From: Haliotis cracherodii
Lineage: Eukaryota
Assembly (NCBI RefSeq): GCF_022045235.1
Contig: NW_027266269.1
Span: 17,174,001 to 17,238,000 of the forward strand
Length of the DNA stretch: 64,000 nt
Reading direction: 5' to 3'
Shown: in pieces, positions 19,671 to 26,948 of the stretch
Position numbering within the stretch: position 1 is the stretch's first letter
How the letters are laid out: every line of letters starts with the position of its first letter
Translations under genes and position numbers: made by a program
Notes under the pieces: model-generated
Seen by the model: the letters and a program-made list of their open reading frames with translations, nothing else
Databases searched by the model: none
Told to the model about the DNA's origin: nothing

Positions 19671-19852
19671 CGAAAGACCTGATTGTTGGACAACGGTCTG
19701 GGGATAAAATCAGGGTGCGTAACCCTCATCGGATCATGCGTGCAGGACTCCTGACCCAAGCTACCACGAAAGACCGCATCGTCTACACCAAGCGCCGCAT
19801 CCTCTACAGTACAGGCACGGGTCTGCCTGTAGACACGGTCCCCTTTGGGTGA
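19671..19852 (+). pseudogene. Protein-primed DNA polymerase B C-terminal fragment (Polinton type)
   Basis: KIRVRNPHRIMR...TTKDRIVYTKRRIL...DTVPFG* resembles the K.YRIVY.KR....T.P(Y/F)G C-terminal motif of Polinton pPolB; 5'-truncated at the minisatellite. Confidence 0.75.
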
Positions 19853-20018
19853 AGAGACTAGACAATTTTTATGATGTTCTCAACGTTGTGTCGGCTGTTG
19901 GCGTTTTATCTTGAGGACATGCGTGTTCGGAGAGAGTGCCGTGCACTGTTCACTTCAATCCGTGAAGCCATGGAAGAAATCAACAACGGTCAGATTAGTG
20001 GAACGAAAACAAATGCAA

Positions 20019-20295
20019 CCAATGAGAAGCTAGGGTTTTCGACCAATCAGAGGCCCGCACACACCCTGTGCGAGACTCTGGTCGAACAGTGGTTGTGCTT
20101 TCTCTCCCATGGAACAGGCCTTTTCCTGTGGAAAAGAAACACAACGTCTGTGCCAAACTGGGTTGTGTGTGGGCCAGAAACCAACCAATGAGAAGGTCGG
20201 GTTCTTCACCAATGAGAAGCTTGGGGTTTTATCCAATCAGGAAGCAGGGTTTCAGTTCCTTAAATACCACAGACGTTCGCTTGTCATCACTTTTC
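20019..20295 (+). promoter_or_regulatory. CCAAT-box array plus TATA-like and Inr-like elements upstream of the zinc-knuckle ORF
   Basis: CCAAT at 20019, 20043, 20185, 20209 and 20233 (24-bp spacing within each cluster), TTAAATA at 20260, TCACTT at about 20287, ATG at 20320. Confidence 0.6.
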
Positions 20296-20319
20296 TGCTG
20301 CTGTCCAAGAAGCAACATC

Positions 20320-21201
20320 ATGTCGTCTCGATACAACTGTCTGAAGTGTCAGACCGACAGTCACAGTTACCTGTACTGTCCCATCTTCCCCAGGCAAGAG
20401 AGTTAACTGACTTTAAAAGTCCAGTTTCCACCCTTGCCGAACTAGGCTGGAATTACTGGGCAGTGGCTGTTACTAGTTATGTTCCCCCCCCTGAGCCTCT
20501 CCTATGGACCAATCAGATTCCACCTCTCGTATCACTTGACGTTTGCTTCACACAAAATGGTGGCGCCCAGTCAGGACGATCTGAGCGATAATCAAGATCT
20601 ATATTGTGATAAAACGGGTCTTACATCGCGAAATGCACATCAAAACACGTGAGCACCTTGATTAAAAACATGAAAAGATTTGGAAAATATTTGCTGACAA
20701 CGAGTTGGCTGTGCATATGCTTTGCAAATCCTGCAATCGACCGAAATCTGCACGACTGTTCACGAACTTGATTTCGGTGCGCGATTTTGATTGGACTATG
20801 CATAGACTCGTTAGTCCAGCCAAAATGTAACGACATAATACCAGTCTAGTTCGGCAAGGGTGGAAACTGGATTTTTGTCGTCAGTTAACTCTCTTGCCTC
20901 GGGAAGATGGTACTGTCCTGAAGTGACATGTACCGAGTGTCACACTCAAGGTCACCGCCACTATGTCTGTACGGAGACGAAGACAAACAGTCAAGGTCAA
21001 GCACATGGTCCATGCTACAACAGTCAAGCCGTTGGCCATTTCGCTGCAGATTGCCCAGAACCCCACAAGAAGACTCCAGCAGCGCCGTCAATGTCGACAC
21101 AACTGACACAAGTGCTCCATCTTATAGAAGACATACATAACAATGTCCGTACCCTAAAAGAACACATAACACATCTCCATGCGGATGTTACAGCAAGCTG
21201 A
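20320..21201 (+). pseudogene. Triple CCHC zinc-knuckle plus coiled-coil protein (114 aa once the MITE is removed)
   Basis: CLKCQTDSHSYLYC, CTECHTQGHRHYVC and CYNSQAVGHFAADC. Removing 20382-20918 restores one open frame. Confidence 0.8.
20382..20909 (-). mobile_element. MITE family M1, 528 bp, perfect 9-bp TSD
   Basis: TIRs CATCTTCCC.AGGCAAGAGAGTTAACTGAC; TSD GTACTGTCC at 20373-20381 and 20910-20918; opposite orientation to the other two copies. Confidence 0.92.
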
Positions 21202-21284
21202 GGCAAAAGAAAAAACAACAGAAGCCCCTCAAGAAATCCCCCTTTAAAGCGCCGGCGACGTCATCATTCCTAGGAGGAGGTGCG

Positions 21285-21553
21285 AGTGAGTGAGTTGGGT
21301 TTAACGCCGCTTTTAACAGTATTCCAGTTATATCACGGCGTGTCAGCTTTTATATGGGAGGAAAGCCCGAAGTGACGCAGGTATCCGACGTTTACCACTT
21401 CGGTAAAACCCACGAGCACGGGAATGGTGCTGACAAACCTAGAAACATAATCGGGGCGAACCGGGATTCGAACCTACGATCATAGGTTTCTGGCGTGTCC
21501 AAGGGACGCAACTCTGCACAGCGCATCGCGGCGCTTTAGACGACTGGGCCTCC
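21285..21553 (-). mobile_element. tRNA-derived SINE family C
   Basis: On the minus strand: A-box-like GGCCCAGTCGTCTAAAGCG, B box GGTTCGAATCC, and tail GCGGCGTTAAACCCAACTCACTCAC. Degenerate relatives at about 45519-45670 and 53740-53895. Confidence 0.8.
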
Positions 21554-21779
21554 CGTTTACACGAGTAAAACACCACGTATGTCTATCTAAACGTATGTTT
21601 GTAGTCACGAGTGACAACACGTTTGCATGTATACACGAGTGACAACACCTATGCATGAATTGGCGAGCGACACCGCGAATGTCTGTCTAAACGTATGTTT
21701 GTAGTCACGAGTGACACCACGTTTGCACCTAAGCTCAGACCAGGCACCGGAACGGTCCAATCGGCGCTGCGTTTTGGAC

Positions 21780-21859
21780 CCATCAGCGTGCAGAGACCTA
21801 AACAGAAATAGAAGCCTCTGGACAAGGCTCCGGCCAAGTCCAAGAAGAATGAGAAACAA

Positions 21860-21894
<35 letters not shown>

Positions 21895-22390
21895 TTCTAC
21901 ACCACGCCTGGTCATGAAAGTCAGGTCGCCCAGGAGGAAGCAGTCCCCACCAGTCTCCACCATGGAGATTAAGGGGACCCTTCCCCCGACCCCACAGCCC
22001 TCCGCCGCAGCAAAAGACCTTGCTCCCCTCGAATTCAGAGGGGAGGAGCCTTTCCGCTCGCAGGAGGCCACAGGGCATGGAAAGAAGAAGAGGAAGAGGA
22101 GAGGGATCTCCTCTCCCGACACTCCCCCACGCCCGACCCCAACGCCAAGTCTACGTAGACCCTGACCGCTACAGCACCAAGCCCCACCCTCAACAACAGC
22201 CAAGTCCAGACCGACCTGGTCCAGGAACCAGAAGTTGAAGTAGACCTCCGTCTTGAACTTAACCGGTAAGCAGACCTCATCCTGTAACAGCACCAAGCAC
22301 ACCTCGACCTCTACCAAGGTCTCTCTCTAGAAGAACATAGCCTAGCCAGGAGGCTCCTGGAAAGGCATCGCCAATAGAAAGCAACGGGAC
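21780..22390 (+). pseudogene. Decayed Lys/Pro-rich ORF with NLS-like KKKRKRR and an acidic helical tail
   Basis: QRPKQK*KPLDKAPAKSKKNEKQTPTPTP...GKKKRKRRGISSPDTPP..., then DLVQEPEVEVDLRLELNR*ADLIL*QHQ... in another frame; premature stops and frameshifts. Confidence 0.45.
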
Positions 22391-22491
22391 CAGTCACCAC
22401 ACAAGCTCGCCAGCCGACGCGTGCCTTCCACAGCTCGAACCACATACATACATCGAGAGGATTCAGTTTCACAAAAATCATCGCATCGAGA

Positions 22492-22830
22492 ATGGCAGTG
22501 ACTGATGGTACGGATGCTTGTGAGCCCAGTAAGCCGCCGACGACACCCCATCAAACTTTTGATAGAAGACTAGTCTCGTTTGAGGCGTGGCGGATGCAGA
22601 TGGGTCAGACCGCTGAAGAGATGGCCCATGTGTGCTTACCGATAGCGTGTGCTGCTTTCAATGCGGCGTGCGGCTGAGAAGATGGGCGCCCCACGACGAT
22701 CCTTGGATCCCCAGTGTGTCTACCTCAAGATGACCGGAATGGTGAGACACAAGAAGAACGTGGAGACTACTACTTTCTGGCACTATCTGTGCGAGAATGC
22801 AAATCAGAGGAGCACGAACGAGGAAGCTTT
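22492..22830 (+). pseudogene. Intronless single-BIR inhibitor-of-apoptosis (IAP)-like pseudogene
   Basis: FDRRLVSFEAW...TAEEMA / TDSVCCFQCGVRLRRWAPHDDPW / PQCVYLK across three frame segments. This is the BIR consensus with two small deletions, covering the AGFxY and EH segments. Confidence 0.8.
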
Positions 22831-23020
22831 CCCCCAGGATGAAGTTCCAGTTTCCGTTCCCGTTCCCGTTCCAGTGTTGGTAGTTTTTCTTCTTCAAACG
22901 GCCCTTTTCAGGGCCATCCAACTCTCCCGAAAAAACACTTTCATCATTGCTTTTCATCACTCTGCTTGCCAACCCTGATGCCAATGATATCCTTACTTAA
23001 GTTGAGGATTTTACGTGCGC

Positions 23021-23170
23021 TTTTTATATTCTCCTCCTCCTCGCCATCTTGGTGGCGCACGCCTTCCCGGAACCGAACGTGCCGTGATCTTGAAGGCGCA
23101 CGCCTTCCCGGAACCGGACGTGCCGGCATCTTTAAGGCGCACGCCTCCTGGAACCGGACGTTGCGCCCTC
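23021..23170 (-). promoter_or_regulatory. Subterminal inward-facing promoter: three 41-bp repeats plus YY1-like motif and TATA
   Basis: GGCGCACGCCTTCCCGGAACCG starting at 23054, 23095 and 23136; CGCCATCTT at 23042; TATAAAAA on the minus strand at 23021-23028. Confidence 0.55.
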
Positions 23171-26100
23171 TTCCACTAGAGGGAGAGAAACCACTTTCGG
23201 TAGGGGAAGATGACTCCCGCTGGCTTGGCGGCCAAAGAGCACGCTTACACTACTCACATGTTTTGTAAGTTATGAAAGTTCTTAATGAAGACAATATTTG
23301 TTGCTATTGTGGGTTCCTTCACCAGTATCAAGTCTGGACTATACCACAGAAAGACACTGTCACTACAGCAGATTCTCTCGGATGCACATTGGGAAGGTCC
23401 ATGGACACAGAGCAAGAACGGCGTGCTTCATTAACGTGTTGCGTGGCCACATCATGTTTGCTACTGACTGTTGCCCAACAAATCCAGAACCAGCCATGTG
23501 CGCCTGTTCATCTCTTGGAAGATGTCCCTCCGTGAACAGTCGGTGTACAGCCAACCCCAGACTGCATTTAGACGGACGTCGAAGCTGACAACCACTATGG
23601 TAGACTAACACGCCCGCTTCCCTGCTCGGATCTGGAACCATCATCTCATTGTTGGTCCTCGGACCAACAACTAACTTAAAGACTTTCATGGACGTCTGAA
23701 AAATAAAACAGCATCTAGGAGTTCCCGATGCAAATAAAAATAGGTTGAGGCTGCAGACAGAGCCAAGTGGCTGCGGATGGATCATAATGTCACATTACTC
23801 TCAGCCTCTATCAACTCAGTGAACAGGACCAATACATCATGCGACTAAGGAAAACCTCCACTGCGGACTGAAAACCCCACTTGAGTTCCAGGAGGCTGCT
23901 AGTCGCCCTTTTAAGGGGAATTGAACTGAACATTGAAACAAGCAAATGAGGACTATATCAAACTGAACTCTAAATCCAAATGTTTTGATAAACTCAAGAA
24001 AAGAAAGACTATATCCCCAGACTATATGATAATATGTGTTTCACACACCAATTGTTGTTATTCTATATATGTTATTAAAATATATAATCTGTCTATACCT
24101 GGTCCAGTTCATTTGTATAAAAGGTTACTACGTGGCGACTACAACCACTAGACCCCGACGTGTTTTAAGACTGTTGGCGACATGGGATGTAGGCCGACAG
24201 GGAACACACTCTTGCTAGATTATAACACGATCAAGCACAAGACTACTGACATTTGTGACGACAAGAGGAACTGATTATCTTCATGGGGAAGACTAACGAT
24301 GGAATGCGATGATGCTTTTTTCTGAAACCCGATTAAATGAGCCTTGTCTACTACTAGGGCCTTACCTCTGCATGTGGTGTTGTATGCCGAACATCTTGGT
24401 CGTATGGGCACTCCTGCTCATATTCTTAAAGGTTTCAAACGGGTGGATCGTTTCTTGCATTTGGCGATGTCAGTGGGCCCTGGTCCTTTATCATACTTTG
24501 TCTACTTACATGAACAACTGTAAAACACTAATCAAACATAGTTCACATTCTACTACCACTAAAGTGGAACAAAGAAACGAGAGGAAATATACTTCCACAC
24601 ATTAACACAGCATTGTGCCCGAAACTGCCATGTACTTATCATGTCATATGATTCCACACCATCCCCATGCACCTCTCGTTTTCCATCTGTACATTAATTG
24701 AAGGAACGCCACACGTGGACCCTTGTATTTGTCATGCGCACATTTAGTAGCGACAGATGTTAGATCTGATTGCCTCAAATACAATAACTACATTTAAATA
24801 CATTACCCGTGGTCGCAGGGACGCTACAGAACATTGCTAGGATACAGGGTTAGGAGAACCACACAGGTAGGTAAACATATATTCGCGCTTGAATTCCTAG
24901 CCATAAGTGTATGATAGGACTTGCAGATAGGGCAACATGGTGAGGTGGTCGACTAAGGCGCCGCAATAAGCTTGCAATCTACTCTGAAGTGACTCTGTAC
25001 CAAACACCTGGCGCTATCGTGCCTGAAGTGACTCTGTACCAAACGCTGTATGTGTTCTCGACTCTGACGTCAACCTGTTCATTAGCTCCAAGTGAAACGG
25101 TACTCAAGGGCCGCATGAAAGTGGCTAGATACATGTCTGTTGTAAACATAAAACGTGCACCTGTACACTGTAATAAATAATTGCCGAAAAAAAACATTTT
25201 TGTTATATTCCTGTCAGCACTTTGGAATAAAAATAAATAATGGTGTCTATTTTATGTTTAAAACCTCTTAATTGAAATACAATTGACCAAAAAAGTACGT
25301 TTATCAATAATTCGCAATTGTCTTATTTAATAATGGTTGCGCTTTCTTAAAAAGTTGTCATACATCTACAATAACCTTTTACGTTTCATTTCCACATTGC
25401 GATATTTTATGTTAACCAAGGGAGGTAACTATCAATTACTCGTGTTTGTTTATGGCTGCAAGAGGTGACTATACGGAGATTTGATATCTACGACCTCCAG
25501 GCTTGGATTCACTGAAGGCATCGAAGATACAATCCAAAAAGTAATGTCCTATGCTTATTTTTATTAGCTAGGTATATGATTACGTAGGATATCTTTTTTT
25601 CACTTTAGGACGAAATAAGAAAGAAGTTACGCCGAGAATAGTAAATATCGGCTGAATATGTAGCCTAGGCTGATAGTGATATATAGGTAAGTCGACTTAT
25701 AACAAGAGTAAACTTATCAAATGAAACACTTATATTGGTCGGCGGTCTAAACTTGCAAAACAGGTGTTGTAATGAACTGTTAAATGCATCTGATGACGTG
25801 GATTTAATGCAGCTCTTGCTGGAATTTACGTGTTTTGAACAAGTGAAATGCAGACGTTGATCTATAAGACTAGGCTCCAGGCCTAGCGTGTGCTTGGTAC
25901 AAGGTCCAATCACGGAAAGAAAGTTAGTGGGACTTCGTCTGATTGTTTGGTCACGGATGTCAAGGCATGATGATGAATGGGGAGACCGACCTATCCATAA
26001 GTTCCCGTCAAACACGTACACTACACAGGTGTTCATATGCATGATTTGACCTGAATTCAGAATCATTGAGTTGGTGTGTGCAGCCATTTTTGCTTGTTGA

Positions 26101-26948
26101 AAGGTTATGATTAGATGACTTGAAACCATAATCTGATTCATACTGAATTTCCATATTTTGCACAGGTCTTTTAGCAGCCCGAAATTCAGACAAGATCCCT
26201 TACACAGGCCTGATATTTAACAAACATGTAATCTTGTTTACAATGAGTAATCATGTACACTTATTGTTTTATGTTGATTTTTCCAACTATCCCATTTATG
26301 CATTGGTGAAAAGATATCTTTAAGGAGAGTACTATAGCCTGAAAATGCAGAAACAGCCTGAAAAACTTGCACAAAAAATGTAAATTTGTATTACTGATTA
26401 AATCTCTATTGATGTATTTCAGTAACTCCTGTAGTTTACATTGGAGATTATGTTTTCATGTGAAAGGGTTCTTCTAAAAAATGCATTTAATGTCACTGGC
26501 TATAAGTTAGTTTACATTGTTATAAATTAACATGTTTCATAATAGTGGAGCTCAGGTTTTTTATATCTGAGGCCCATTAGATGTCTCGGTTTTCATGAGG
26601 ATCATGGTAAGGACACAATCTCCATGTTTACATTAATCCTTAAATTCTGACATACTTGTTTGTTCTCAAATTGTAGTTCTCCATTTGCAATTGATGGTGT
26701 TAAAACATAACTTGGCCTACCTTTAGAATTCAGAACCACATATGTTGCTATACCCTATGATACCATTTGTGAAATTTTGTTGCAAGGTACACCATGGTAC
26801 TTGTAATGTCAGCATGGCAACAGGGTTGCTGGGGTCTTCAAGTGGCTCCTTTCAGTGATCTATCATTGCTACATGTAATGCCAATGTCACTGAACAAACC
26901 TGGCAATGTTGAGATGTTTTTATTTTCATCATATTTTGTTTCAACTTA

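Follow-up and report, generated by a model that had tools for sequence, protein, structure and literature searches.

A decayed Polinton arm in Haliotis cracherodii and a Polinton family with core genes on two separately integrating elements

The window analysed here comprises 64,000 nucleotides of Haliotis cracherodii contig NW_027266269.1 (positions 17,174,001 to 17,238,000). At 19671..23254 it contains an island that, judged from its sequence, is the decayed and broken right arm of a Polinton (Maverick), from a polymerase-side copy. A sequence-only reading had taken it for the right arm of a Polinton-like element from a mollusc, bearing a BIR and a zinc-knuckle gene and obscured by inserted MITE and SINE copies as well as by frameshifts, and our analysis bears out both the identity of the element and the way in which it was masked (Table 1).

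Table 1. Features of the island, in window coordinates
Feature	Position	Strand	Evidence
pPolB C-terminal ~60 codons, remainder of gene absent	19671..19852	+	tblastn with intact family pPolB; PF03175 on family protein
Conserved ~41-codon block, putative coding	19871..19994	+	3' of polymerase in every polymerase-bearing copy
CCAAT-array promoter-like module	20011..20260	+	CCAAT positions; recurs 5' of several family genes
Zinc-knuckle (CCHC) gene, interrupted by MITE	20320..21201	+	PF00098; aligns in two pieces
MITE, 528 bp, ~80-bp inverted ends, 9-bp target duplication, later insertion	20382..20909	.	dispersed copies, 84%
SINE, tRNA-like head, later insertion	21285..21557	-	dispersed copies, 92-93%; relaxed ARAGORN match
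Internal minisatellite of the element family	21570..21727	+	same repeat at same position in relatives
Unrelated dispersed-repeat fragment with Lys/Pro-rich ORF	21814..22430	+	matches to dispersed repeat
Single-BIR (IAP-like) gene, frameshifted	22489..22842	+	tblastn to family BIR1; PF00653 on family protein
Histone-type 3' stem-loop (stem 22900-22915) and downstream purine-rich element	22895..22941	+	Rfam RF00032
41-bp subterminal tandem repeats of terminal inverted repeat	23042..23172	+	repeat search
Right terminus ACTACT	23249..23254	+	sequence; related ends with different flanks

The polymerase-like C-terminus noted earlier is that of pPolB: in an intact family protein of 1418 aa, its alignment spans residues 1341-1415 (53%, E 4e-12), and that protein matches PF03175 at E 8.5e-35. 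The window's 59-aa piece alone gave no Pfam match; the fragment has 129 matches across the genome. Of the small ORF thought to follow it, the first ~41 codons match the conserved block, and the remainder crosses a promoter-like module that recurs before several genes. That module, correctly recognised as a CCAAT array, holds five CCAAT boxes at 20019-20233, also lies 5' of pol/BIR1, CCHC and o107, and may function as a promoter. The zinc-knuckle gene is present as described but split by the MITE, and relatives are uninterrupted across the insertion site; PF00098 matches its 3' part in the window at E 0.0045 and the intact family protein at E 1.3e-12. The BIR gene is homologous to family BIR1 (tblastn E 1.8e-7 to 2.7e-10), a family protein that matches PF00653 at E 1.6e-22 and, when intact, IAP/NAIP structures; the window's own BIR pieces gave no Pfam match. 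The accessory cassette may, as suggested, be a host-manipulation module; what is shown is the BIR homology.

The subterminal repeats and the ACTACT end at 23254 held up as well. Related copies end at the equivalent position with differing flanks, and two short elements have 6-bp duplications; the duplication of the window copy is unreadable because its left end is missing. A search of the window and of the 20 kb upstream revealed neither a left end nor more of the polymerase, and no integrase was found in the window. The Lys/Pro-rich ORF does not belong to the cassette: none of 26 young family members carries it, and its region is related, at about 72% (53 matches), to a dispersed repeat of another kind. 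In some copies this repeat sits 3' of an RNase H ORF, and the fragment in the island is likely to be the 3' part of an RNase H-bearing retroposon. A 67-bp minisatellite had no match to family elements. Two relatives keep the order polymerase, block, promoter, CCHC, (repeat), BIR and terminus at 75-83% DNA identity. The sub-lineage of the window is older and groups with copies that retained ATPase.

The sequence-only reading overlooked the histone-type stem-loop at the 3' end of the BIR gene, which scores 37.8 bits (RF00032; gathering threshold 34) and has one change in its ACCCA flank. Three A genes and one B gene of the family (classes described below; BIR1, CCHC, o107 and o86) end in such a stem-loop and a downstream element, the stem-loop lying 11-134 nt 3' of the stop codons. 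Exact 27-nt copies of it number 293, against 0 for the control. As in replication-dependent histone 3' ends (RF00032; SLBP/U7, in the accessible part of PMC5706932), a 16-nt stem-loop is preceded by AAC and followed by ACCCA, with AAAGA about 14-19 nt downstream, intronless genes and upstream CCAAT boxes. The flanks are identical to those of host H2A, H2B, H3 and H4 ends and the spacing is nearly the same, the AAAGA element lying at +15-19 in 83 of 84 family sites versus +14-18 in host histone genes. Hairpin pairing, flanks and spacing are exactly kept in 76 of the 85 scanned sites. Unlike histone ends, these stem-loops stand 3' of BIR, zinc-knuckle and two small Cys-rich genes, and a single compensatory pair (T-A to C-G) sets the stem apart from that of the host. 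They are absent from three resident one-piece families and from 82 outside loci (463 kb). Because the small accessory genes have a CCAAT module on one side and, on the other, a histone stem-loop with its downstream element, the SLBP/U7 pathway is predicted to cleave their mRNAs, which would probably peak in S phase; the BIR proteins, going by homology, would hold off cell death in the meantime. Should the stem-loops be functional, a pathway normally reserved for histone messages would serve a virus-like element, and its accessory genes would be tied to S phase. Only four genes are followed by stem-loops, which may be nearly invariant in part because they were copied recently. Poly(A) hexamers lie near one of eight other gene ends, an uninformative count, and a host U7 snRNA was not found among the 65 of 206,431 candidates scored.

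An element of 15-25 kb with integrase, ATPase, protease and capsid genes had been expected, but in the young family those genes reside on a second element bounded by the same ends. All 34 young paired elements in the one assembly are 8-12 kb, and the 26 that were fetched comprise 16 of class A, 6 of class B and 4 of class C; copies of A outnumber those of B. Class A (10.6-11.9 kb) carries an intact pPolB, two BIR genes and a zinc knuckle. All 16 copies have an ORF of 1415-1420 aa with all five polymerase/exonuclease motifs, and in none of the 16 was there a match to integrase, ATPase, capsids or protease. Class B (about 10.5 kb) has ATPase, integrase, minor and major capsid and protease genes, with rve (PF00665, E 5.3e-12) and A32 domains and a major capsid predicted to fold as a double jelly roll (pLDDT 92.8; Sputnik MCP E 3.6e-17), and a polymerase match in 0 of 6; class C is without any core gene. 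A 184-aa accessory protein gave no Pfam or Atlas match. Identical 6-bp flanks border 23 of the 24 young elements with both ends visible, and A and B each integrate separately with 6-bp duplications.

No young copy combines the A and B gene sets (0/26); only decayed fossils join them. Among the candidates scored (99 of 2022 for integrase, 95 of 378 for capsid), a family polymerase end lay within 40 kb of 0 of 13 integrase and 0 of 10 capsid loci at at least 95% identity, and no B gene lay within 1 Mb of 21 open-frame polymerase loci. Two apparent joined elements proved otherwise: at C23:51.5 Mb, an A copy 11 kb from B remnants is self-contained with its own duplication, and at C1:41.9 Mb a fragment of another Polinton family is nested in A. 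Twelve unpaired terminus matches, considered as longer one-piece elements, were chance in 11 cases and an old A in one; taken by itself, the terminal 13-mer occurs no more often than its control (85 vs 153 matches), and only pairing is informative. The B half was covered in 30 of 30 bins in runs X12, X14 and X20 and in 13 of 30 in X7, and none of the listed pieces from these four runs spanned the B-specific junction 5' of ATPase.

The family ends in AGTAGT...ACTACT with terminal inverted repeats, as Polintons/Mavericks do. These repeats measure 439-565 bp in most A and B elements and are longer in C. The termini of one A-B pair are identical over 330 nt, and the mean terminus distance is 0.045 between A and B versus 0.049 within A. 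In a tree, A termini lie intermixed with B termini, and a single B-terminus clade is rejected (p-AU 8e-79). Three one-piece Polinton families that we examined have other termini, or none that were found.

Substitution ratios show purifying selection on the A and B gene sets. For pPolB, dN/dS is 0.23 for variants shared among copies and 0.55 for private ones (Fisher p 0.018), and pooled class B core genes give p 0.008 in a selection test; the CCHC gene has dN/dS >1. For fish Mavericks, the accessible part of PMC8097293 reports dN/dS of ~0.001, against which the 0.2-0.5 seen here represents far weaker constraint. The A layout is kept in seven older copies to dS 0.24 (dN/dS 0.27-0.49), four of which have their own paired ends and duplications, and polymerase-less B copies reach dS of up to 0.2-0.29. 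Between older A copies and B, ATPase identity is 83-88%. Six decayed loci join polymerase with B-type genes; distances to these one-piece fossils are dS 0.35-0.48 for the A polymerase and 0.18-0.26 for B genes.

Together, we put at about 70% the probability that this is a two-segment Polinton with complementary 10-12 kb halves acting in trans, the window holding a decayed polymerase-side copy. Segments with common termini and complementary essential genes, which characterise a segmented virus, are both present. After excision or co-infection, the A polymerase would copy both linear genomes from their common ends. Because A is without integrase yet has fresh duplications, the B integrase would insert A as well as B, and the B capsid module would package each half separately. 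Class C would ride along as a gene-poor passenger of similar size; the similarity of the three sizes is only suggestive of co-packaging. These data come from one assembly, and a young one-piece helper may exist elsewhere, whether within other animals or as free virus. Other families in this genome include intact one-piece Polintons, which share the terminal hexamer and could therefore help. No partner of the window's sub-lineage was identified.

Some of these observations could also be explained if A, B and C were passively copied, mutually independent deletion products of an active one-piece Polinton absent from the assembly, residing in other individuals or as free virus. Such products would be expected to have common termini, old one-piece fossils are present, class C resembles a defective passenger, and only part of the integrase and capsid candidates was scored. 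We nonetheless consider this unlikely, since the A and B layouts are uniform to dS 0.24-0.29 under purifying selection, the losses are complementary rather than random, all young paired elements are 8-12 kb, and the unpaired terminus matches revealed no longer element. The greater distance of the A polymerase than of B genes from the one-piece fossils likewise argues against it.

Less probable still is that A and B are independent satellites of other resident one-piece Polintons, A borrowing integrase and capsid and B a polymerase. In favour of this, three intact one-piece families are resident, two of them with AGTAGT ends, and the closest is at 47% polymerase and 42-49% integrase/capsid identity; for other polinton-like viruses without an integrase, the available portion of PMC11296320 suggests integration through genes acting in trans. 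However, the one-piece families have just 6-7 terminal bases in common with A/B, and the interleaved or identical A/B termini require co-replication; the ATPase similarity of older A copies and B also speaks against this reading. For the window itself, three foreign insertions and the lack of a Pfam match for the polymerase and BIR pieces alone would fit a mosaic of unrelated host and transposon scraps with the hairpin as a passive leftover. This we regard as highly improbable: the two relatives with the same gene order contradict a mosaic, and the exact conservation of hairpin pairing, flanks and spacing at most scanned sites speaks against a passive relic.

In outside relatives, polymerase lies 5' of ATPase in 14 of 14 long contigs with at least 2.5 kb there. 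One route to the two-segment state, whose chances we judge to be roughly even, is that A originated as a satellite, without capsid genes, of a one-piece Polinton, and that this Polinton later lost its polymerase and turned into B; the polymerase tree (212 columns, long outgroup) does not fix the order of events. The odds are similarly balanced that we are seeing an integrating double-jelly-roll dsDNA virus becoming segmented, with interdependent halves, fossils of the one-piece and intermediate forms alongside them and early genes expressed via the histone 3'-end pathway. Double-jelly-roll viruses with dsDNA are not known to be other than one-piece, and the origin of segmented from one-piece viruses is a long-standing question. 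Since a single genome here preserves the two halves, a passenger class and datable remains of previous layouts, the route to segmentation can be traced. No prior report of a split Polinton, or of a histone stem-loop in one, was found in the literature searched, a search outside which lay subscription papers, Repbase and supplements.

Compared with known systems, the family agrees with Polintons/Mavericks ('alpha' adintoviruses, group 1-type), as defined in the accessible parts of PMC8097293 and bioRxiv 10.1101/697771, in its AGTAGT//ACTACT ends, 6-bp duplications, long terminal repeats and intronless ORFs, and in its pPolB, rve integrase, A32-type ATPase, double-jelly-roll major capsid, minor capsid and protease. 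Class B keeps the order of outside relatives (ATPase, integrase, minor capsid, major capsid, protease). Unlike the intact Polintons in that part of PMC8097293, the core genes are split over two separately integrating elements, with pPolB in A and the window fragment, not B or C, and the integrase, capsids, ATPase and protease in B only; 0 of 26 young elements hold all of them, and only decayed fossils do so in part. The mining described there required integrase and pPolB matches 4-40 kb apart and so would miss the split layout. Whatever the animal, such pairs would escape screens that demand a polymerase beside an integrase.

Bidnaviridae (Bombyx mori bidensovirus) and Drosophila Vesanto virus, as portrayed in the available sections of PMC4061559 and PMC8363768, likewise combine a Polinton-origin pPolB with segments bearing matching terminal repeats; the functional likeness holds if the present segments are packed separately. 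According to the same sections, those viruses have ssDNA, a parvovirus-type capsid and an S3 helicase, lack an integrase and carry polymerase and capsid together on a single segment. In contrast, the abalone family has a double-jelly-roll capsid, an integrase, and polymerase and capsid on different segments, each of which integrates.

Unlike non-autonomous Polintons, A and B retain intact, selected and complementary gene sets. Such defective passengers are said to have been described by Kapitonov and Jurka in 2006 and in Repbase. Class C and old elements of 1-4 kb resemble them, having the family ends and few or no genes.

The sequence-only reading had proposed that window 19671–23254 is the right arm of a Polinton-like element, and this arm is real: its order of pPolB tail, CCHC gene, BIR gene and ACTACT terminus recurs at 75–83% identity in two relatives that lack its three insertions. 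The window copy is dead, and its left end is gone. A Lys/Pro-rich ORF had also been assigned to the accessory cassette, but it is supplied by a fragment of an unrelated repeat. A dispersed 1.3-kb repeat has a Lys/Pro-rich ORF followed by short repeats that form its 3' tail, and some copies also contain an RNase H ORF. Flanks of the type at 23255–23260 contain CATG at four of five old window-type loci, as do several class B and C duplications, and a target-site preference for such flanks is possible. Outside the island, a 183-aa open stretch lies at 25665–26216 (minus strand).

Content of the island at window 19671–23254, in order
Feature	Place	Remark
pPolB C-terminal end, last ~60 codons	First part of island	53% to intact family protein; PF03175 match on that protein
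Conserved 41-codon block	After pPolB tail	
CCAAT module	After 41-codon block	
Zinc-knuckle gene	After CCAAT module	Split by 528-bp MITE with 9-bp duplication
SINE	After zinc-knuckle gene	
Internal minisatellite	After SINE	
Unrelated-repeat fragment	After minisatellite	Source of Lys/Pro ORF
BIR gene	After unrelated-repeat fragment	Frameshifted
Histone stem-loop	After BIR gene	
41-bp repeats, then ACTACT	Island terminus	

In the one assembly searched (1.18 Gb), the polymerase tail has 129 matches, 21 of them within open frames of 1400 aa or more. Three of these open-frame loci are elements of 10.6–11.9 kb that have AGTAGT/ACTACT ends and 6-bp duplications but lack integrase and capsid genes. A 13-nt terminus word is not above control by itself (85 matches vs 153 for the control word); 68 of the 85 form 34 inward-facing pairs. 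Copies sharing the ACTACT boundary had been expected to have an inverted partner 15–25 kb away; paired ends with 6-bp duplications do exist, although at 8–12 kb. Classes were assigned from 26 of these pairs. Class A (16 of 26) encodes a pPolB of 1415–1420 aa in which each of the five motifs examined is present; its other genes are two with a single BIR, one CCHC gene and three small ORFs. When the integrase, ATPase, capsid and protease proteins of three one-piece Polintons resident in the assembly, in which a single element holds all core genes, were compared with class A by tblastn (E 1e-3), no match was found. Class B (6 of 26) carries ATPase, integrase, minor and major capsid and protease genes, the major capsid being absent in one, and none of the six has a polymerase. 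Its proteins match Pfam rve and A32, and its major capsid is modeled confidently as a double jelly roll. Class C (4 of 26) has neither polymerase nor B-type core genes. The remaining eight pairs each have a polymerase match, with no integrase or capsid among the matches listed. The closest named relatives of the family polymerase and capsid are Haliotis proteins, which makes an abalone the likely host.

Class C elements (C6:36.13, C7:14.79, C9:0.38, C14:15.72 and C6:5.82 Mb) are largely palindromic, with arms up to 4.8 kb and an interior of tandem repeats and only small Cys-rich genes with stem-loops; their size is nonetheless 7.7–9.9 kb, possibly reflecting a packaging limit. The class A copy at C78:61.51 Mb has 1.56-kb inverted ends with the CCHC gene at both, which shows that the arm of one end is copied onto the opposite end. 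Among young class A copies, which vary in knuckle number, the CCHC gene has dN/dS >1, a value from few sites and sensitive to alignment.

By a one-element test, the family of the window element is not an intact Polinton. We consider it probable (roughly 70%) that the island element behaves like one half of a two-segment Polinton. Joint action of A and B is suggested by several results. The first 330 nt of A and B termini are interleaved, with one A–B pair identical, and the A–B terminal distance (0.045) equals that within A (0.049). With older copies added, monophyly of the B termini is rejected (p-AU 8e-79). In other Polinton families whose ends were found, the match to A/B termini stops after six or seven bases. 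Variants common to several copies are older than the insertions; their dN/dS is 0.23 vs about 0.5 for private variants in pPolB (Fisher p 0.018) and 0–0.35 vs about 0.5 in B core genes (Fisher p 0.008). Seven older copies, at dS up to 0.24, again show the class A layout, and B copies that lack polymerase extend to dS 0.2–0.29. Three points speak against joint action: purifying selection in the A/B family is much weaker than in fish Mavericks (dN/dS ~0.001 reported in PMC8097293), class A copies outnumber class B, and the data come from one assembly. Words of the A half occur in sequencing runs under four organism labels (share 0.23–0.77), and in runs under three labels the B half has coverage along its whole length.

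No young joined copy was found among the best 99 of 2022 integrase and best 95 of 378 capsid candidates, from which extra fragments of a locus already counted and members of other families (≤46% identity for integrase, ≤53% for capsid) had been removed. Within these sets, a polymerase end is no more than 40 kb away at 3 of 57 integrase loci and at 2 of 57 capsid loci; at ≥95% identity the counts are 0 of 13 and 0 of 10, and no B gene lies within 1 Mb of the 21 open-frame polymerases. Twelve unpaired termini were rejected as eleven chance matches and one old class A copy. Six decayed loci do join polymerase with genes of the B type, and one of these has the complete series polymerase–ATPase–integrase–minor capsid–major capsid–protease. 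Outside relatives are one-piece: among the contigs of 7 kb or longer listed from 82 loci, polymerase precedes the ATPase in all 14 that have at least 2.5 kb before it. On a metagenome contig, a close outside relative (capsid identity 72%) carries a BIR gene flanked by the minor and major capsid genes. The assembly also contains an abundant second one-piece family of ~14 kb, with 150 or more ATPase matches, and two further families.

Young class A polymerases are at dS 0.35–0.48 from the one-piece fossils, and young class B integrase and capsid at dS 0.18–0.26 from two of those same fossils. The window polymerase clusters with old copies that have polymerase, ATPase, BIR and CCHC genes and no integrase or capsid (212 columns, weakly rooted). 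Most simply, A-type satellites would have come first, and the one-piece helper would later have lost its polymerase. Alternatively, fission may have occurred repeatedly, or the one-piece fossils may themselves be products of fusion.

Non-autonomous Polintons are present in Repbase, and the gene label PZ is in use. Our comparison draws on parts of PMC8097293 (sections 7 and 16), 10.1101/697771, PMC11071308, PMC4061559, PMC8363768, PMC11296320 and PMC5706932. As described there, segmented pPolB-bearing relatives occur among ssDNA bidna-like viruses (PMC4061559, PMC8363768), and integrase-less polinton-like viruses may integrate in trans (PMC11296320). We found no report of a split Polinton, or of one with histone stem-loops, in the portions consulted of the literature outside subscription papers and Repbase.

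Rfam RF00032 matches lie 11–134 nt from the stop codon, 3' of BIR1, the CCHC gene and the 107-aa gene in class A and of the 86-aa gene in classes B and C. A 27-nt form of the stem-loop has 293 genomic copies vs 0 for the control. No histone-type signal was found in the three one-piece families or the 82 outside loci. Host clustered H2A, H2B, H3 and H4 genes have the same 3' signal; relative to the host stem, the element stem has one compensatory pair changed and retains AAAGA one base further out. A CCAAT module lies upstream of the same stem-loop-bearing genes. From the established SLBP/U7 pathway of histone mRNA 3'-end formation (PMC5706932), the transcripts of these genes are expected to carry no poly(A) tail and to be most abundant in S phase; such a pattern, if true, would suit a DNA element in need of nucleotides and a living cell. 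A genome search gave no host U7 snRNA among the 65 of 206,431 candidates scored. The divergent BIR1/pPolB pair of class A has one promoter module between the two genes, and the word GGATCGAAA in this promoter recurs, perhaps by chance, in the host divergent H2A/H2B promoter.
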